IMG/VR virus record: IMGVR_UViG_2671180608_000012
Strand: one strand, 5' to 3'
DNA: 10,537 nucleotides
Source of the DNA: a virus
Taxonomy: Duplodnaviria > Heunggongvirae > Uroviricota > Caudoviricetes
Both the position numbers and the translations under genes were made by a program. Position 1 is the stretch's first letter. The number at the start of each line of letters is the position of its first letter. The notes under the pieces were generated by a model, which saw only the letters and a program-made list of their open reading frames with translations, did not search any database and was not told the DNA's origin. Positions 1-6,663 of this stretch are shown one piece after another.

Positions 1-12
1 AGTGTAGCGGTA

Positions 13-1290
13 TTAAGCGCAGCTATTTAGTGAATTAAGTAAATTAGTCAGTGACCTTGTAAAGTCTGTTAAACCTTCCTGTGAACCATCGAACATTAAG
101 GCCAGATTATTATTCCATGAATTACTTAAGCGGCCTAACTGCGTCTGAGTAGAGTTAATAATCTTTTCCCATCCACCAGCTTTATCAATCATCCTTCCCA
201 TTTCAGCGGATACTTTAGGAAAAACATCTTTAGAAAGAACCTTACCGTCTTTCATGGCCTTGTCTAATTCTTCCGTAGTCATCCCAAGACTTCTGGCAAA
301 TAACTGAAAAGCACCTGCCATTCTGTCACCTAATTGACCGCGTAGCTCTTCAGCCTGAATCTTTCCTTTAGATGCCATCTGCTCGAAAGCTTTTAAAATC
401 CCGTTAATTTCATCGGTGCTTAGCCCCATTAATCTGGATGTACCAATCACATTAGAAAATAAGGATTCTTTCTGGTCTGCATTCATATCACCAGCACCAG
501 CGGAAAACTTAGCAAAACTGCTTAATGTTTCAATCTGGTCTACACCACTACTATCAGCAAGATTCTTAACAAATTCTGTAGCTCGTTTAGCACCTTCATC
601 ACCTAAAACGAATTGTGCCGCTCGTTGTGATGCTTCTTTTTTCAGACCAACCTCCATAATCCGCCTGTAAGCTTCTAAGGCTGTCTGAAAACTATAAATG
701 GCTGTACCTGCTTTGATTGCACTCGTAGCTAATACATCCAGACTATTTGAAGCATTTTCACTGTGATTATTTTTGCTGGTGGTCTTGTTAAACTTAGAAA
801 GTGTTTCACGAAGAGACTGATTTAACTTTGCTAACTCACGATTAAAAGTTTCGTTTCCAAGTGTCTTGGATTTACTGCTTAAGCTGTAATACTGGCTTTT
901 AAAATACTTCTCAAGCATAGGATTAAAGTCACGAAGCTTGCTCATATTCGCTGAGTAAGCTGCTGTGATTGCTCTGCTTCCGCTAATTCGTGGCTGTCTT
1001 GGTTGTCTAAGTGGCTTTAAAGTATCCTCAATTTCAGTTTTAATCTTAAACGCTCTAGTGTTTTTAAGACGCTGCTCAATCTTGGAAACAGTTTTATCGA
1101 CATTTCTTTCCATTAGTTTGAGAGAATCATTTAAAGGCGTAGGATTAACTCTAAACGACTTATTCAATCGCTTCTCAATTCGTGATGCTACCTGCATCGT
1201 TTGTTTCTCGGCTTTTTCCAAGCCTTTTAAAACTTTCTGAGAGTTAAAACTTAACTCAATCAGAAAATCATCAACTTTAAATTGTGCCAT
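13..1290 (-). CDS. Tape-measure-domain protein (phage tail length tape measure-like), 425 aa, complete
   Basis: ORF with ATG at 1288-1290 preceded by GAGGTG; stop at 13-15. Residues ~290-370 (NGILKAFEQMASKGKIQAEELRGQLGDRMAGAFQLFARSLGMTTEELDKAMKDGKVLSKDVFP) match from memory the conserved tape measure domain of phage tail length proteins. N-terminal 280 aa are K/S/N/L-rich and coiled-coil-like. Confidence 0.6.
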   Translation of the reverse strand: MAQFKVDDFLIELSFNSQKVLKGLEKAEKQTMQVASRIEKRLNKSFRVNPTPLNDSLKLMERNVDKTVSKIEQRLKNTRAFKIKTEIEDTLKPLRQPRQPRISGSRAITAAYSANMSKLRDFNPMLEKYFKSQYYSLSSKSKTLGNETFNRELAKLNQSLRETLSKFNKTTSKNNHSENASNSLDVLATSAIKAGTAIYSFQTALEAYRRIMEVGLKKEASQRAAQFVLGDEGAKRATEFVKNLADSSGVDQIETLSSFAKFSAGAGDMNADQKESLFSNVIGTSRLMGLSTDEINGILKAFEQMASKGKIQAEELRGQLGDRMAGAFQLFARSLGMTTEELDKAMKDGKVLSKDVFPKVSAEMGRMIDKAGGWEKIINSTQTQLGRLSNSWNNNLALMFDGSQEGLTDFTRSLTNLLNSLNSCA

Positions 1291-1380
1291 TCATATTTTT
1301 CACCTCTTTAAGCGTGTTGTACGTAAATTCTATTTTTCAGTGTGGGTATTAGCTTTACAGATTTCACGTAGCACACATAC

Positions 1381-1422
1381 AAAAAAAGGGAGAGCTACCG
1401 ATGTCACTCGATAATCTCTCCC
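1381..1422 (-). terminator. Rho-independent terminator after the 69-aa gene
   Basis: On the minus strand: GGGAGAG (rc of 1416-1422), 21-nt loop, CTCTCCC (rc of 1388-1394), then TTTTTTT (rc of 1381-1387). Lies between the stop of the 69-aa ORF and the start of the tape-measure-like gene. Confidence 0.5.
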
Positions 1423-1446
1423 CGTATTTACCCAACCAATTCTTTT

Positions 1447-1656
1447 TTAATGTCGGACAAGATAATGTAATTCCGTTTCACCTATGATTTGAGCATCAGA
1501 AGGAATACGGTCAATACACCACTTTGGAATCTTGCGTGTTTTTGGTTTGTGTGAGGTGATAACTTGACGTTTGTTTTTAATTCTTAAGGCTGGCTTAGTT
1601 TGTAACTTTAAGTTTTCACAAACAGACCGAATAGTCTCTAAACGTTCTTCAAACAT
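1447..1656 (-). CDS. Hypothetical small basic protein (69 aa)
   Basis: ATG at 1654-1656 preceded by AAAGAGGTG; K/R-rich; 23 nt downstream of the 236-aa gene; no recognisable family. Confidence 0.45.
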   Translation of the reverse strand: MFEERLETIRSVCENLKLQTKPALRIKNKRQVITSHKPKTRKIPKWCIDRIPSDAQIIGETELHYLVRH

Positions 1657-1678
1657 TAATCACCTCTTTAATTCATAA

Positions 1679-2389
1679 TCAAACAGCCTTGCTATACTTC
1701 TGAGAAATCTTCGTTAACTGCTCAATATCAGCCATCAAAGCAATCTTCTTCTGCGACTCATATTCACTAACAAGTTCTTTCATAGTATCAAGTTCTTTTT
1801 TAAGCTTTTGCTTTAACTTATCCAGTTTACCGGAATAATGCTTAGTCAAATTAGCTTCAGCTAACTGAAGAATCTCTTCATCTGTTTTATCAGTCATCAG
1901 AATAAATTGACCAGAACCCCTTAATGCTTGTCTGACATCAATTAACCGGAACCCTTCAGGGATACTTTGAAGAACTTTAGGAACGTCTTCAATCGCTGTA
2001 CCAAAACCATCATTAAAGTTTCCTTCATAATAGATAAACGGGTTTGACTTAATCTCGTAAGCAATATCATATTCTGAAGGTTTCGAGGTTTCTTCGAAGT
2101 TCTTAACAGCATCGTAAGCGACATCAAGTCTAAGACGCTGTGATTTTAAAGCTGGGTAATATTCACGCTCAAGCTCAAATAGTGCTTCAGTTTTGCAGAT
2201 ATCAGGCATTTCTTGAGGCTCAGGAGACACAAAGGAAATTACCTTTGGTGACATCTTTAGCTCTTGCTCAAGCTCAATGCGCTTGTCATGCTCTTGACGC
2301 TGAATAGTATGTAGCGGATGTTCACCCTGTGGTGACCAGTCTCCGAAGCTATCAACCTTTTTACCGTTAATATATAAATCGTTTGTCAT
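1679..2389 (-). CDS. Hypothetical protein (236 aa), cassette copy A large protein; paralogue of 4386..4997
   Basis: ATG at 2387-2389 with GAGGA RBS. Shares colinear motifs with the 203-aa ORF (PEPxEmP; NDGFGTAIEDVPKVLQSIPEG vs RDGWGYDPVEIGKVIADLPEG; following R-rich segment; coiled-coil tail). No known family recognised. Confidence 0.65.
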   Translation of the reverse strand: MTNDLYINGKKVDSFGDWSPQGEHPLHTIQRQEHDKRIELEQELKMSPKVISFVSPEPQEMPDICKTEALFELEREYYPALKSQRLRLDVAYDAVKNFEETSKPSEYDIAYEIKSNPFIYYEGNFNDGFGTAIEDVPKVLQSIPEGFRLIDVRQALRGSGQFILMTDKTDEEILQLAEANLTKHYSGKLDKLKQKLKKELDTMKELVSEYESQKKIALMADIEQLTKISQKYSKAV

Positions 2390-2477
2390 TATAATTTCCT
2401 CTAAGTGTGGTTATTTCTTAATAGAGCACCTTCAACGCCAATACACTTAGAAGATGACTTAACGATTTATTAAAGAT

Positions 2478-2518
2478 GCTCTATTAAGAAAAGCCCTAAA
2501 CATAATCTGTGAAGGGCT
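2478..2518 (-). terminator. Second (distal) intrinsic terminator of cassette copy A
   Basis: Hairpin GCCCT (2493-2497) / AGGGC (2513-2517) with inner 3-bp stem; on the minus strand followed by TTTTCTTAAT. Near-identical to the single terminator hairpin of copy B. Confidence 0.45.
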
Positions 2519-2580
2519 TTGGAGGTTTGCTTATAACGTTAACGAAGTTTCAGGAAAACTTTCTTTAAAAGCTCTGTTTA

Positions 2581-2617
2581 AAAACTCTTAAAGAAAGCCC
2601 TAACTCATGATTAGGGC
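2581..2617 (-). terminator. First (proximal) intrinsic terminator of cassette copy A
   Basis: Perfect 7-bp stem GCCCTAA (2597-2603) / TTAGGGC (2611-2617) with 7-nt loop; on the minus strand followed by TTTCTTTAAGAGTTTTT. Confidence 0.5.
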
Positions 2618-2780
2618 AAAGCTGTAAAGGATTCAATAATGAATGAACAAAGACTTTTTGAGATAGCCTCTCAGACCAACCTGAAAGGCTAGGACGAAAA
2701 GCATTGCACCTTTCCAACTCAGAATATCCATTCATCGGATTATTGAAAGAAAAAATAAGAGAGAATTGCTCTCCCCCATA
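2585..2780 (-). ncRNA. Candidate small RNA or terminated 5' leader (copy A), ~195 nt from predicted start to first terminator
   Basis: Lies between a conserved sigma70-like promoter and an intrinsic terminator; ~90% identical to copy B; no conserved reading frame (indels not multiples of 3, stop codon relative to copy B). Transcript ends are predicted, not observed. Confidence 0.3.
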
Positions 2781-2786
2781 TATACA

Positions 2787-2815
2787 ATTATGTCATGCTC
2801 AAGGTTGTTTGTCAA
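2787..2815 (-). promoter_or_regulatory. Sigma70-like promoter TTGACA-17-CATAAT (minus strand), copy A
   Basis: -35 TTGACA = rc of 2810-2815; -10 CATAAT = rc of 2787-2792; 17-nt spacer. Both hexamers are identical in copy B while the spacer differs at 4 positions. Confidence 0.55.
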
Positions 2816-2904
2816 CAGCCTTTAACAGATTGGTAACATTTATACTTTAATAGATGCACCTGCAATCATACCAATCAATACAAAACAGATAATCACCAAT
2901 TCCA

Positions 2905-3120
2905 TTAATGCACCACCTTCGAATCCGTCACCAGAATATTATCGCTATACAAAATTGCTATAGCCGCCTTGAGATATTTTTCAGGGCTAACGCTGTATTT
3001 GTTCGTTTCTTCGATAATAAGACGCTTCATGTTTGAGTCGGTAACAGGAAACATAAAACGCGGTTCACCAGTTTCAATTTCCTGAATAAAGTCTTCAATT
3101 TCTTCTGAGTTTTCAGCCAT
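2905..3120 (-). CDS. Small acidic protein, cassette copy A (71 aa as seen; apparently 5'-truncated relative to copy B)
   Basis: Protein MAENSEEIEDFIQ...ILYSDNILVTDSKVVH is 49/71 identical to the C-terminal 71 aa of the 108-aa copy B protein. Its ATG (3118-3120) lies 2 nt from an N-run and 14 nt from the IS end, so the true 5' end is uncertain. Confidence 0.5.
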   Translation of the reverse strand: MAENSEEIEDFIQEIETGEPRFMFPVTDSNMKRLIIEETNKYSVSPEKYLKAAIAILYSDNILVTDSKVVH

Positions 3121-3122
3121 TA

Positions 3123-3134
3123 NNNNNNNNNNNN
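3123..3134. other. Run of 12 N (assembly gap or masked bases) at the IS boundary
   Basis: Directly visible in the sequence. Confidence 1.
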
Positions 3135-3177
3135 TGAGGTGTACTGGCAATAGCGGACACTACCATTTGTTCTTTTT

Positions 3178-3996
3178 TTAAGCAGCCATCTGATGATATT
3201 TTTCCCTGAAGGCTGCCGGGGAGATATTCCCCAGACGAGAGTGACGACGCTGACGATTGTAGAAAATCTCAATGTATTCCCGTATTACTGAGATGGCTTC
3301 ATCCCGGTTATTAAAACGATAGTGGCTCAGGCTCTCATTTTTCAGCGTTCCCCAGAAGCTTTCCATCGGAGCGTTGTCGTAACAGTTACCTTTACGCGAC
3401 ATTGATGTTTTCAGACCAGACTGCTCCTGTATGACCCGGTAATCGTATGCGCAGTACTGTGAACCTCGATCAGAGTGGTGGATTAGCCCGGCAGGTGGGC
3501 GCTGGCTCCTGAGCGCCATAAACAGGGCTTTACCTGTCAGCTCTTTTGTCATGCGCTCTCCCATGGCGTAGCCGACAATTTCGCACGTATAAACATCTTT
3601 GATGCCAGCGAGGTACAACCATCCCTCCTGTGTGGCAACATACGTCAGGTCCGCCACCCAGACCTGATTTGGTGCTGTAGGAGCGAACGTCTGGTTCAGC
3701 AGATTTGGCGCAACTGGCAGATTGTGGTTCGAGTTCGTAGTCGCTCTGAACTTGCGTTTCTGCTTACAGCGTAGCCTTAGCTCCTTACGAAGACGTGCCA
3801 GTCGGTCACGACCAACGATGATGCCATTCTCTGCCAGCTCCGTCTGGAGCCGCCGGGTTCCATATGTTTCGCGAGTGCGGATATGTGCCACCTTAATCTC
3901 CAGTTTTAGCCGCTCATCACTTTGTTTTCTGTCTGAGGGTTCATGCTGTACCCAGTTGTAATAACCGCTCCTGGATACACCAAATACCTGACACAT
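3178..3996 (-). CDS. IS3-family transposase OrfB (DDE catalytic domain)
   Basis: Motifs typical of IS3-family OrfB: NQVWVADLTYV, HHSDRGSQY, CYDNAPMESFW, YNRQRRHSRLG. Coordinates are from the first Met; the orfB frame actually extends upstream to the frameshift site near 4077-4083 and is probably expressed as an OrfAB fusion. Confidence 0.85.
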   Translation of the reverse strand: MCQVFGVSRSGYYNWVQHEPSDRKQSDERLKLEIKVAHIRTRETYGTRRLQTELAENGIIVGRDRLARLRKELRLRCKQKRKFRATTNSNHNLPVAPNLLNQTFAPTAPNQVWVADLTYVATQEGWLYLAGIKDVYTCEIVGYAMGERMTKELTGKALFMALRSQRPPAGLIHHSDRGSQYCAYDYRVIQEQSGLKTSMSRKGNCYDNAPMESFWGTLKNESLSHYRFNNRDEAISVIREYIEIFYNRQRRHSRLGNISPAAFREKYHQMAA

Positions 3997-4031
3997 CGCT
4001 TCAATGGGAAATTGTTGTCGCCATTGTTCGA

Positions 4032-4334
4032 TTAACGCGTATTTTTCAGCGACTCCTGTGCAAAATACGCTGTTGCTTTTTTTAATATATCTCGCTCAAG
4101 GCGAGCTTCATTTAACGCCTTACGCAGTTGCAGAATTTCAGATTCCAGTTCAGCCACCGTGCGGGAACCAGGAGTACCGAGCCCTTTTCTGGCGGCGGTA
4201 ACCCATTGTCCTAAAGTGCCTTCAGGAAGAGATAATCGGGAAGCGCCTTCACTGATCGAAAGTTGATTTTCAGGAACCGTTCTGACAGCTTCGGCTTTGA
4301 ACTCTTTAGAGTAACGTTGGGTTTTTCTGCTCAT
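4032..4334 (-). CDS. IS3-family transposase OrfA (HTH plus leucine-zipper region)
   Basis: ATG at 4332-4334 preceded by GAAGGAG; 100 aa ending ...ILKKATAYFAQESLKNTR, resembling IS3-family OrfA; slippery heptamer lies at the LKK codons. Confidence 0.85.
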   Translation of the reverse strand: MSRKTQRYSKEFKAEAVRTVPENQLSISEGASRLSLPEGTLGQWVTAARKGLGTPGSRTVAELESEILQLRKALNEARLERDILKKATAYFAQESLKNTR

Positions 4335-4385
4335 TATTAGCTCCTTCTGATGCCATTCTATTTCAGGAAGGAGTGTCCGTTAAAC

Positions 4386-4997
4386 TCAGGCTACCTCACT
4401 AATCAGCTTAGCCAGTCTTGATTTCAGCAAATTAATCTCATTTTCTCTTGCTTTCATCAGTTTCTCTTTGGCAATTTCTTCAAGCTCAGCTTGTGATTTA
4501 TCAGCAACAATTAGAGACAGTCGATGTGGTGCTCTGACAGCTCTTTCTGTACGAACAACTCTTTGACCTTCTGGTAAATCTGCAATCACTTTACCAATCT
4601 CTACAGGGTCATACCCCCAACCGTCACGGTCTAGTCGAGAGAAATAAGCATAAGAATTGGTTTGAAGCTCCATCGAAATAACCATTTCGTCAATTTCGTC
4701 TTCAAGCTTGGACTGAATTTTCTCGTAAACACTTCTCATTGCTTCTTGAGAGTCTTTAATAGCTTGGAAATATCGGCGTTGTAGCTTCAACTTCAAATCA
4801 AGTTCACACCGTTCGTTCATAGAAAAATCAATTTCAACTCTTGGAATCTCGAGTGGTTCTGGTGGAATATATGGACCTTTATTTACTTCGTGTGATTCCC
4901 GCCAAGCTCTATCAAAAGATTCACGCAAAGTTAATTCGTGAATATCAAGTGCACTTGGTCTGTGTTCGATAAGCATTTCATGTTCATTTCTAATCAT
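4386..4997 (-). CDS. Hypothetical protein (203 aa), cassette copy B large protein; paralogue of 1679..2389; 3' end runs into the IS
   Basis: ATG at 4995-4997 with AAGGGG RBS. The last three codons (EVA) and the stop are encoded inside the IS terminal repeat (IS ends at 4398). About 35 aa shorter at the C-terminus than the 236-aa paralogue. Confidence 0.6.
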   Translation of the reverse strand: MIRNEHEMLIEHRPSALDIHELTLRESFDRAWRESHEVNKGPYIPPEPLEIPRVEIDFSMNERCELDLKLKLQRRYFQAIKDSQEAMRSVYEKIQSKLEDEIDEMVISMELQTNSYAYFSRLDRDGWGYDPVEIGKVIADLPEGQRVVRTERAVRAPHRLSLIVADKSQAELEEIAKEKLMKARENEINLLKSRLAKLISEVA

Positions 4998-5100
4998 TCG
5001 TTCACCCCTTAGTTTATTTGTTATTTCAATTTATAGAAGCACACTCAGCAATCAGAGGTGAAGAGTCTGACTGAACAAGAACCTGCCAAGTGTGCTTTTA

Positions 5101-5136
5101 AAAACTGAAAAAGCCCTAAACATTTCTGTGAAGGGC
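5101..5136 (-). terminator. Intrinsic terminator of cassette copy B
   Basis: Hairpin GCCCT (5113-5117) / AGGGC (5132-5136) with inner 3-bp stem; on the minus strand followed by TTTTTCAGTTTT (rc of 5101-5112). Confidence 0.5.
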
Positions 5137-5290
5137 AAAGGATTCAATAATGAATGAACAAGAGTACTTTTTGAGATAGCCTCTCAGACTAACCTGAAAG
5201 GCCATGACGAAAAGCATTGCACCTTTCCAACTCAGAATATCCATCCATCGGATTATTGAAAGAAAAATAAGAGAGAATTGCTCTCCCATA
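5104..5290 (-). ncRNA. Candidate small RNA or terminated 5' leader (copy B), ~185 nt
   Basis: Conserved promoter upstream and intrinsic terminator downstream; ~90% identical to copy A; 5'-proximal hairpin GAGAG-caatt-CTCTC. The 69-aa ORF reported here (5116..5325) is not conserved as a frame in copy A. Confidence 0.3.
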
Positions 5291-5296
5291 ATTAAA

Positions 5297-5325
5297 ATTA
5301 TGCCATGCTTAAGGTTATTTGTCAA
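5297..5325 (-). promoter_or_regulatory. Sigma70-like promoter TTGACA-17-CATAAT (minus strand), copy B
   Basis: -35 = rc of 5320-5325; -10 = rc of 5297-5302; 17-nt spacer; hexamers identical to copy A. Confidence 0.55.
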
Positions 5326-5426
5326 CAGCTTTTTAACAGGTTGATAACATCAATTCTTATTTACCGCATTGTTAATAATACAACCAACAAATAAGCCAAG
5401 CAACGTCCAAGCAATTATTAAACCCA

Positions 5427-5753
5427 TTAGTGAACCCTCACAGAATCCGTCACCAGAATATTATCACTGTACAGGATTGTCACAGCACCTTTCAAAAATT
5501 GCTCTGGGGAAATACTGTATATGTTCGTTTGCTCGATAACCAATCTTTTCATGTTGCTGTCTGTAATTGGTAGCATCATTCGAGGCTCGTTAAACTCCAC
5601 CGACTGAATAAAGTCAGAGATGTTTTCTACATTATCAGCCATCAGCTTTAGTAATTTATCAAAATTAATTGCGATACCTGCATCAATGAAGCTTTGCACC
5701 ATCATAGCAGTGTCGTTATCAACCATAATTTGCATTGGGTAATTATTCATTTT
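5427..5753 (-). CDS. Small acidic protein, cassette copy B (108 aa)
   Basis: Start placed at the internal ATG (5751-5753) preceded by AGGAG, not at the longer ORF-track start. Net acidic (about 14 D/E against 7 K/R). C-terminal 71 aa paralogous to copy A. No known family recognised. Confidence 0.6.
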   Translation of the reverse strand, partial: KMNNYPMQIMVDNDTAMMVQSFIDAGIAINFDKLLKLMADNVENISDFIQSVEFNEPRMMLPITDSNMKRLVIEQTNIYSISPEQFLKGAVTILYSDNILVTDSVRVH

Positions 5754-5917
5754 TAAATCTCCTATGAAACACACCTCAGACCTCTTAAAATAGCCATTCT
5801 GAGGCCAGTAACCATGCGGGTTACAGAGGGAGTTGCACTGGCTGGTAAGGTAATTTATCAAATTAAGGTGCAACTCTGCCTGTAAAGTGCATTCTACCGT
5901 TTCTTAGATGGTTATTT

Positions 5918-6337
5918 TTAATTGTCTTTATTAATCAATGGCTTAATGTAGAAATACTGTCTCCGTGAAATACCATATTTTTCTGTAATGTATCGCTGAG
6001 ATTGACCAGCATTTATGGCCTGAGTGATATCATCACGGTTATAGCGGTTACCACGGGATTTATATTTGTCACCATCCACATCTTCTGAGGTATTGAAGTC
6101 TTCAATCAGCTTAATTGCATCGTGAAGGTCATCTTCTGAGGCATAATCGAAGGTATGGATAATCTCAAAATCACCAGTATCTGCTGGTGCATTCTTCCAT
6201 CTGGAGAAGCGGGATTTTAATTGCTGGTGTGTGAAGGGTTCAGCATTACGAGTTAAATCTTTCCATGTTCCGTTATTCTCACGGACAAGGTGACCTCTAT
6301 GGCGATAAAACGCATGATAATCAAATGTGCATAGCAT
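5918..6337 (-). CDS. Hypothetical protein (139 aa) with C-terminal HTH-like segment
   Basis: Start overlaps the stop of the upstream RHH-like gene at 6337 (coupled). C-terminal DITQAINAGQSQRYITEKYGISRRQYFYI resembles a helix-turn-helix. Confidence 0.5.
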   Translation of the reverse strand: MLCTFDYHAFYRHRGHLVRENNGTWKDLTRNAEPFTHQQLKSRFSRWKNAPADTGDFEIIHTFDYASEDDLHDAIKLIEDFNTSEDVDGDKYKSRGNRYNRDDITQAINAGQSQRYITEKYGISRRQYFYIKPLINKDN

Positions 6338-6627
6338 TAAACCCCCAGCTTATCCGCCAGTTGATGAACCTTGGCACTCAACACCTGAATCATTGAGCAA
6401 CCTGCCACTGCGGACTGTGCTTTGAGTAGTTCCAGTTGGCCCGTTGTGATTCTGATGGCCTTAGAACCCTCTGCAACGCCCTTGATAGCGTCAAACGGTG
6501 TAAGGGCTATGTGTTCCTTCAAAATCTCACCAACAAGTGCTGTGTGGCTCATGGCTGGGTATTTGTCTTTGATTGCTGCCAGTCTGGAATATGCCTCTGG
6601 CAAAAGGCGTGTAACTGTGTGTCTCAT
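6337..6627 (-). CDS. Ribbon-helix-helix (Arc/MetJ/CopG-like) DNA-binding protein, 96 aa
   Basis: ATG at 6625-6627 with AAGGA RBS. N-terminus RHTVTRLLPEAYSRLAAIKDKYPAMSHTALVGEILKEH fits a beta-strand/helix/helix RHH pattern. Sits directly downstream of the divergent promoter region. Confidence 0.5.
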   Translation of the reverse strand: MRHTVTRLLPEAYSRLAAIKDKYPAMSHTALVGEILKEHIALTPFDAIKGVAEGSKAIRITTGQLELLKAQSAVAGCSMIQVLSAKVHQLADKLGV

Positions 6628-6663
6628 TAAATTTTCCTTCTTAAAATCTTTGACTTATAACTA

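Follow-up and report, generated by a model that had tools for sequence, protein, structure and literature searches.

This analysis concerns a 10,537-nt stretch of viral DNA (Caudoviricetes; IMG/VR record IMGVR_UViG_2671180608_000012), hereafter called the window, and in particular a module that occurs in it in two copies (A and B) and consists of a gene for a small protein (Small), a non-coding element, and a gene for a larger protein (Large). On balance, the module appears to be a control region in which terminators gate the tail-gene operon of a probable, hitherto undescribed phage satellite. The family of chromosomal islands in which the module resides is, judging from its gene content, probably such a satellite; no description of Felix-O1 satellites, of the island at tonB/yciI, or of the RNA sequence was found in the literature searched, although one may exist elsewhere. 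The interest of the locus lies mainly in the structured RNA encoded by the non-coding element and in its satellite context.

The non-coding element is composed, in this order, of three TGTT(A/G) repeats, a promoter, a covarying 5′ hairpin, the hairpins P1 and P2, one or two intrinsic terminators, a hairpin with 22-27-bp arms, and the ribosome-binding site of Large. The three repeats are spaced by 11-12 nt (window 2816-2850 and 5326-5360) and lie just upstream of the -35 box, which they also overlap. The predicted promoter matches the sigma-70 consensus at 11/12 positions, carries a TG extension, outranks all other sigma-70 sites of the region, and is conserved in all variants. From the inferred start to the first terminator the RNA measures 181-191 nt in the window, and the fold of copy A reaches -60.5 kcal/mol (z -4.1). 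A terminator scan returned 10 terminator-like sites versus 3.8 expected. The long hairpin preceding Large is likewise stable in copy A (-37.3 kcal/mol, z -5.5), with a z of -2.5 in copy B. In lambdoid late control, a strong constitutive promoter precedes an intrinsic terminator by no more than ~200 nt, ahead of the structural genes; the same arrangement is predicted here from the sequence. When the two copies are compared, the non-coding core (2626-2823 versus 5137-5333) is 96-100% identical over ~130 nt, far above the flanking genes, and no conserved reading frame runs through the RNA region across the variants. Searched with the Rfam covariance models at E≤1, the RNA gave only one chance match to a microRNA family (E 0.42, far under the gathering score).

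P1 is an invariant 19-nt hairpin (GAAAGGUGCAAUGCUUUUC), whereas P2 is a hairpin of 10-13 bp whose pairing is kept in 14 distinct sequence variants according to single-sequence folds. A covariance model was built from six sequences, to which 18 loci were re-aligned. In these loci, 5/12 pairs of P2 show compensatory changes and 99.3% of the cells are paired; slid-partner controls gave ~50% pairing and zero compensatory changes. An independent set of 81 loci (27 distinct sequences) showed compensatory changes at 6/12 pairs and 98.8% pairing. Important to note here is that the P2 alignments were fitted to the model and are biased toward its structure; the slid controls and the single-sequence folds nevertheless argue against a circular result. 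In each cassette the model recognizes a single forward-strand copy, and it finds none in the phage loci. A weaker alternative hairpin, proposed by RNAalifold on a plain MAFFT alignment in which P2 was mis-registered, breaks in locus L016 and was discarded in favor of the model-based alignment.

Intact islands of 10-11 kb were found in 477-492 of 5426 complete Escherichia coli genomes (~9%), always in the chromosome. Integration was seen at no fewer than two sites, tonB/yciI and yecE/yecN, and the islands use two large serine recombinases that share only 33% identity. All islands examined show the order Small, non-coding stretch, Large, p69 (a small basic protein), tape measure, and Dit-like gene, followed by the recombinase on the other strand, with one cassette each. 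The module is thereby positioned between the upstream genes of the island (the replication initiator and small uncharacterized proteins) and the Large-p69-tape measure-Dit-like operon. Pattern scans for the RNA yielded 116 further metagenome and IMG/VR loci, none of which contains a second RNA copy. Small lies upstream of the RNA in 97/108 judgeable loci and Large downstream in 86/95, and where this order is broken, a 17-mer had matched by chance at a site that the RNA model does not recognize. A preliminary description of the window had read the three parts as one unit of a mobile element, a view to be given up if the proteins matched virion proteins and the arrangement was not conserved. This unit is real: the same order recurs in a mobile element, and the proteins are without family match.

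The allele types upstream and downstream of the non-coding stretch were counted as MGLI/A 22, MGLI/B 15, MELV/A 18, MELV/B 4, MTLI/A 17, and MTLI/B 5. Since they assort freely, the conserved stretch is a recombination joint as well. No O157:H7 genome was among the close matches (≥99% identity) to the island. The E. coli islands are intact and keep one architecture at two integration sites in ~9% of complete genomes, the pairing of the RNA hairpin is maintained through compensatory changes, and the non-coding core is conserved while the flanking genes drop to 25% identity. These observations make it very improbable that the locus is inert prophage debris whose non-coding conservation reflects recent common descent only, even though both islands of Shigella sonnei are heavily disrupted by IS1, IS600, IS630-like, and other insertion sequence (IS) elements.

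Because the island is small and integrative, possesses its own large serine recombinase and HTH_36 initiator, lacks capsid and packaging genes, and has tail genes (helper-related tape measure and Dit-like genes) as well as a DNA segment in common with virulent phages, its profile fits that of a phage satellite. The partial tape measure product encoded in the window matches TIGR02675 (E 1e-16), and its 688-aa counterpart in E. coli 4012 is 94% identical to it. The island protein shares 30% identity with the tape measure protein of the Felix-O1-like phage SUSP2 over the first ~500 residues, and the Dit-like protein (Pfam Dit_like) is ~70-74% identical to an Ounavirinae protein that is encoded directly after the tape measure gene. 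Only these two island genes have phage relatives, which belong to the Ounavirinae; none of 50,697 phage genomes gave a tblastn match to the seven island proteins searched, among them Large, Small, and p69. In SUSP2, genes encoding proteins of 136 and 75 aa occupy the slots of Large and p69 just before the tape measure gene, with undetectable similarity. A more far-reaching proposal is possible but doubtful, namely that the islands form an undescribed Escherichia/Shigella satellite class parasitizing virulent Felix-O1-like myoviruses. The module would then be a helper-sensing switch in which the constitutive RNA and the terminators gate the operon, and Large would couple the satellite’s tape measure and Dit proteins to the helper’s tail machinery or sabotage it.

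The shared DNA segment is non-coding and lies between the methyltransferase and small recombinase genes (window ~9523-9697, core 9605-9651; also 9472-9500), where up to 47 bases are identical to Felix-O1-like phage DNA. On the phage side, the match falls into an unannotated region of 1.2-1.6 kb (Moogle, BPS15Q2, JH2, and VpaE1). The shared piece consists of a short hairpin followed by CGAATCAACTAGA, and a second, inverted, and diverged copy is found ~140 nt away; the piece could be a shared origin, packaging site, or regulatory site. In the long non-coding region of phage Moogle (L002 1955-3588), TGTTA occurs 18 times per kb versus 2.9 per kb in the flanks, mostly on one strand. Together with the TGTT(A/G) repeats at the island promoter, this enrichment possibly points to a common DNA-binding factor, a connection drawn post hoc.

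In the proposed mechanism, the host RNA polymerase would fire the RNA promoter constitutively, and most transcripts would stop at the terminators, releasing the structured RNA of ~190 nt and keeping the tail-gene operon off. Upon infection by a Felix-O1-like helper, a factor of either the helper or the island would permit read-through into Large-p69-tape measure-Dit. Small, as a double ribbon-helix-helix DNA-binding protein, would probably act on the phased TGTT repeats at the promoter, whose three TGTT(A/G) units are candidate Small-binding sites. Large would be an adaptor or chaperone for the island’s own tape measure protein, which is the weakest step and derives from gene position.

The AlphaFold2 model of Small (mean predicted local distance difference test score, pLDDT, of 68) shows two beta-alpha-alpha units (E-H-H, E-H-H) in one chain. 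Its best matches in the Protein Data Bank (PDB) are chains of the F-plasmid protein TraY, although weak (probability 0.94, E 0.017, template modeling (TM) score 0.40-0.45). A single-chain double ribbon-helix-helix fold is hypothesized from this model with low confidence, and hidden Markov model searches, PDB searches by sequence, and an internal-repeat BLAST gave no sequence support for it. Neither Small nor its neighbors match a Q-family antiterminator in Pfam (including the Antiterm families), PHROGs, or NCBIfam. Directly after Small follows a tiny open reading frame (ORF) of 21-25 codons, whose frame and hydrophobic core are kept in 11 peptide variants. As its start overlaps the stop codon of Small (TAATG), a translationally coupled membrane peptide is predicted.

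Several points weigh against the terminator-gated reading. A helper-specific promoter may lie between the terminators and Large. The 5′ end of the RNA, its abundance, and the efficiency of the terminators were all deduced from sequence. An antiterminator homologue is missing, and the ribbon-helix-helix assignment depends on a model with a pLDDT of 68 and TM scores of 0.40-0.45. Furthermore, Large resembles no tail assembly chaperone in either sequence or fold, and LargeA, LargeB, and a 56%-identical variant all occur with tape measure proteins that are 94-97% identical.

The main rival explanation takes the RNA for a free-standing small RNA that acts in trans on helper-phage or host transcripts, with the terminators forming its 3′ end and the operon being served by a separate, helper-dependent promoter. 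Such a role would be in line with the invariant 19-nt P1, which suggests sequence recognition, with the compact and stable fold that has its own promoter and terminator, and with the fact that the one- and two-terminator architectures are each found with both Large types. We consider it rather unlikely, since no conserved complement of ≥10 nt to the RNA was found inside the islands (10-11-mers occur at chance level only) and a blastn search of phage genomes at E≤10 gave no similar sequence, although short seed pairings would escape detection. Moreover, a promoter scan found no other strong minus-strand sigma-70-like site upstream of Large, including the interval between the terminators and Large.

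With regard to Large, no match was obtained in Pfam, PHROGs, NCBIfam, or PADLOC, and the same holds for p69. A profile search through 1.84 billion cluster representatives recovered 23 clusters only, and a scan of genome contigs detected relatives in Escherichia albertii and one other Escherichia species only. The AlphaFold2 model of Large (pLDDT 72, from a shallow alignment) consists of a long helical hairpin, a small alpha/beta insert, and a C-terminal helix of 66 residues. Foldseek comparison with PDB and BFVD returned nothing meaningful (best TM ~0.3). Thousands of Large relatives bear the record name transposase at NCBI; this candidate function was rejected, as no transposase domain and no DDE, HUH, serine, or tyrosine recombinase domain was found in Pfam or NCBIfam, and the name looks like a propagated mis-annotation as far as sequence searches can tell. 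The preliminary description had recognized none of the four module proteins as a known family, which agrees with their lack of matches in the four libraries and of any phage homologue.

By position, Large and p69 resemble a pair of tail assembly chaperones, as they sit directly upstream of the tape measure gene. No chaperone homology of either protein was found in PHROGs or Pfam, nor any similarity to the 136-aa and 75-aa proteins of SUSP2. p69 has its own ORF, which follows Large at a distance of 22 nt in the +1 frame, and is not the product of a programmed -1 frameshift. A cognate chaperone role is disfavored because the Large allele type does not track the tape measure type. The alleles of Large are strongly diverged (down to 25% identity) beside neighbors that are 94-97% identical, a pattern more suggestive of an arms race between this protein and the helper.

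The hypervariability of Large between islands could also be expected of an anti-phage abortive infection system, be it a type III toxin-antitoxin-like unit with Large as the toxin or a membrane-peptide effector under the control of Small. The layout of promoter, structured RNA, terminator, and protein gene resembles ToxIN, and the conserved tiny hydrophobic peptide would fit the second variant. We judge this explanation unlikely: Tandem Repeats Finder detected no tandem repeats inside the RNA, PADLOC and Pfam searches were empty with no ToxN/AbiE-type toxin downstream of the terminator, and Large is co-oriented with p69, tape measure, and Dit and ends 22 nt upstream of p69. Long helices dominate the Large model, next to a small alpha/beta insert, and no toxin was among its fold matches; ToxN-type toxins probably have a different fold. 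A role in defense or counter-defense, which had been put forward for the cassette, has gained no positive evidence.

The preliminary description had further interpreted the two copies as a tandem duplication that subsequently diverged. The underlying similarities are genuine. LargeA and LargeB share 25% identity over 156 aa (E 2e-17), PEP, DGxG, and lPEG belong to the columns that never vary in a family alignment of 9 sequences, SmallA and SmallB are identical in 49/71 residues, and non-coding regions of 515 nt (A) and 429 nt (B) separate Small from Large. Of the four coding regions described, LargeA is indeed full length, but LargeB and SmallA are truncated at a joint formed by IS600 and a run of 12 N, both of which had gone unmentioned, and the start of SmallB is corrected from 5753 to the ATG at 5750. 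The tandem duplication itself is not real because ~0.7 Mb separate the cassettes wherever the S. sonnei chromosome examined is complete, and because each of them is cut short at the IS600/N joint. In these chromosomes, SmallB, a 203-aa LargeB, and IS600 belong to an island adjoining yecN/cmoA, past whose IS600 lambdoid prophage DNA follows and no cassette A. The exact LargeA belongs to the other island, adjoining yciI/tonB, where an IS1 insertion, accompanied by a 9-bp target duplication, interrupts the Small gene. In CP104423.1, for example, the exact LargeA falls within the range 1,833,970-1,852,680 and SmallB/LargeB with IS600 within 2,530,002-2,548,325.

Window 1-3122 is 100% identical to the S. 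sonnei LargeA locus (L029), and window 3135-9346 is 99.9% identical to the S. sonnei SmallB/LargeB locus (L022), which has a different place in the same kind of genome; the switch between the loci falls within the 12-N run beside the IS600 end. SmallB itself is 100% identical to an S. sonnei protein present on at least 1000 contigs. An IMG/VR contig (L011) has the same IS600::LargeB junction as the window with different DNA past it. In 3263/4271 collection blocks, LargeA was found on a contig of 2-5 kb; these short contigs are an IS-bounded fragment of the size of window 1-3122. The window contains three N runs (3123-3134, 9382-9408, and 9832-9874), and the latter two have duplicated flanks (81 nt at 96% around the second of them, an 80-nt repeat at 78% near the first) that are absent from complete S. 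sonnei genomes. These duplications look like unmerged contig ends from a region with two paralogous copies.

We conclude that the cassettes became adjacent through a scaffold join or, with lower probability, through an IS600 rearrangement specific to the strain, neither of which is a duplication; the two cassettes are allelic variants, each stemming from an island of its own, that met at the IS600/N junction. What counts against the scaffold join is that the N runs may be masks and not scaffold gaps, in which case a rearrangement by IS600 in this strain could be considered. A true tandem duplication of the two-gene cassette followed by divergence is hardly credible. The window does present two homologous units in the same orientation 2.5 kb apart, but each unit corresponds to an allele found alone in other islands, both are cut exactly at the joint, and no two-copy locus exists among the 130+ loci; those examined from E. 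coli, E. albertii, IMG/VR, and metagenomes have one cassette each. The apparent duplication is a product of IS elements and an N run and not of biology, and taken as written it would mislead.

Table 1. Coordinates of the module parts and adjoining features (window positions; the genes of interest, taken from the ORF list, are all on the minus strand)
Feature	Position	Strand	Remarks
Tape measure gene, N-terminal 425 codons	13..1290	-	Third gene of the LargeA-headed operon; IS-truncated in S. sonnei
p69, small basic protein, 69 aa	1447..1656	-	Always between Large and the tape measure gene
LargeA, 236 aa	1679..2389	-	Full length; orphan coiled-coil protein
Long hairpin A, 22-bp arms	2414..2491	-	Inverted repeat just upstream of the LargeA ribosome-binding site
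Second terminator-like hairpin, copy A	2486..2517	-	GCCCTTCACAG...TTTAGGGC then T-run
Structured RNA, copy A, ~190 nt	2590..2780	-	5′ hairpin, P1, P2, terminator T1; start inferred from the promoter
P1, copy A	2696-2714	-	Invariant hairpin
Intrinsic terminator T1, copy A	2590-2617	-	Terminator scan
Sigma-70 promoter A	2787..2815	-	TTGACA-17 nt-CATAAT plus TG extension
Tiny ORF A, 21 aa	2840..2905	-	MELVIICFVLIGMIAGASIKV; hydrophobic; start overlaps the Small stop codon (TAATG)
Truncated SmallA	2905..3120	-	C-terminal 71 of ~107 residues
Run of 12 N	3123..3134		Joint between island-A DNA and IS600
IS600 (IS3 family)	3135..4398	-	Outside the module; truncates LargeB; 99.7-100% identity to IS600 in hundreds of records
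Truncated LargeB	4386..4997	-	199 native residues, followed by SEVA and a stop codon that IS600 contributes; 234 aa in full-length relatives
Long hairpin B, 27-nt arms	5024..5110	-	Inverted repeat upstream of the LargeB ribosome-binding site
Structured RNA, copy B, ~180 nt	5109..5290	-	P1 at 5209-5227; single terminator at 5107-5136
Sigma-70 promoter B	5297..5325	-	11/12 consensus positions plus TG extension
Tiny ORF B, 25 aa	5350..5427	-	MGLIIAWTLLGLFVGCIINNAVNKN; coupled to SmallB
SmallB, 107 aa	5427..5750	-	Full length; modeled as two beta-alpha-alpha units

Along the direction of transcription, the window starts with the small serine recombinase, a Dam-type methyltransferase, an HTH_36 replication-initiator-like gene, and several small uncharacterized genes, after which SmallB, the non-coding stretch, LargeB, IS600, SmallA, the second non-coding stretch, LargeA, p69, and the 5′ portion of the gene for the tape measure protein follow. 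An inverted repeat with 25-nt arms at 5814-5892, between p139 and SmallB, could be a terminator or an RNA-processing site. The replication-initiator-like gene is represented by two ORFs in the window (7238-7612 and 7738-8127; 124 and 129 aa) versus one 313-aa coding sequence in E. coli 4012 (L001 16840-17781), and this split gene is probably another pseudogene of the decaying S. sonnei island. The Dam-family methyltransferase (8491-9153) carries a C-terminal resolvase-type HTH_7 domain, an unusual fusion.

In general, an island comprises genes for a large serine recombinase, the Dit-like protein, tape measure, p69, Large, the RNA, Small, variable small proteins, an HTH_36 initiator, a small serine recombinase, and often a Dam methyltransferase; examples are E. 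coli 4012 (CP103626.1; L001, 8940-19350) and loci L004-L010, L012, and L016-L021. The segment upstream of Small is variable, and in many islands (L005 7107-7379, L006 6801-7088, L016, L020, and L021) an HNH endonuclease gene replaces p139 and p96 of the window. In the island of O55:H7 DEC5B, Large and p69 are separated by an additional gene of 102 aa (L018 300-608). The small serine recombinase (Hin/resolvase type) of E. coli 4012 (L001 18778-19347) is encoded on the opposite strand compared with window 9805-10479, L004 9550-10101, and L006 10079-10627, and it is only 42% identical to those of other islands. This end of the island may therefore be invertible or replaceable.

The module, composed of two protein families, a micro-protein, and a structured RNA, is contained in no curated library and yet is found in ~9% of complete E. 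coli genomes, where it heads a tail-gene operon related to that of virulent Felix-O1-like phages. Phages of this type serve in typing and therapy. If the islands are satellites of such phages, E. coli would offer a tractable model of satellite parasitism on lytic phages, and the RNA-terminator gate is a concrete switch that can be tested.

F-plasmid TraY is a single-chain double ribbon-helix-helix DNA-binding protein (10.1101/2024.12.19.629322). The model of Small likewise predicts two beta-alpha-alpha units in one chain of ~110 residues. It differs in that the match is weak, model confidence is low, and sequence similarity is lacking, and the context of Small is unrelated to conjugation. In long-tailed phages, genes for tail assembly chaperones of the G/GT type lie upstream of the tape measure genes. 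The two positions immediately before the tape measure gene are taken by Large and p69 in the islands; unlike the G/GT pair, they show no sequence or fold similarity to these chaperones, p69 lies in the +1 and not the -1 frame, and the Large alleles do not co-vary with the tape measure alleles.

The late control region of phage lambda comprises the constitutive promoter PR′, a 6S RNA of ~194 nt that ends at the terminator tR′, and the Q antiterminator encoded just upstream. The module likewise has a strong predicted promoter, a terminated transcript of ~190 nt ahead of the structural genes, and, immediately preceding the promoter, a small gene for a presumed regulator. In contrast to lambda, it possesses neither a Q-family protein nor sequence similarity, its RNA has a conserved covarying structure with an invariant hairpin, and read-through is only proposed. 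Immunity of the satellite phage P4 relies on a constitutive promoter (PLE), a CI RNA derived from the leader, and premature termination; Rfam contains C4/CI-type families, and none was among the matches of the module RNA at E≤1. As in P4, a satellite-type element would use a leader RNA and termination instead of a classical repressor to hold an operon off, as proposed here, although no internal complementary targets were found and the module would control tail genes, whereas P4 controls its replication genes.

The phage-inducible chromosomal island-like element of Vibrio cholerae, also abbreviated PLE, is a satellite of the virulent myovirus ICP1. The islands described here differ from it in carrying tape measure and Dit-like genes related to those of the presumed helper. 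Compared by gene content alone and not at the protein level, the two have in common that they are small chromosomal islands with a large serine recombinase, their own replication initiator, no capsid or packaging genes, and a tie, here a presumed one, to a virulent myovirus. Should the islands indeed parasitize Felix-O1-like myoviruses, they would represent an enterobacterial counterpart of the Vibrio PLE.

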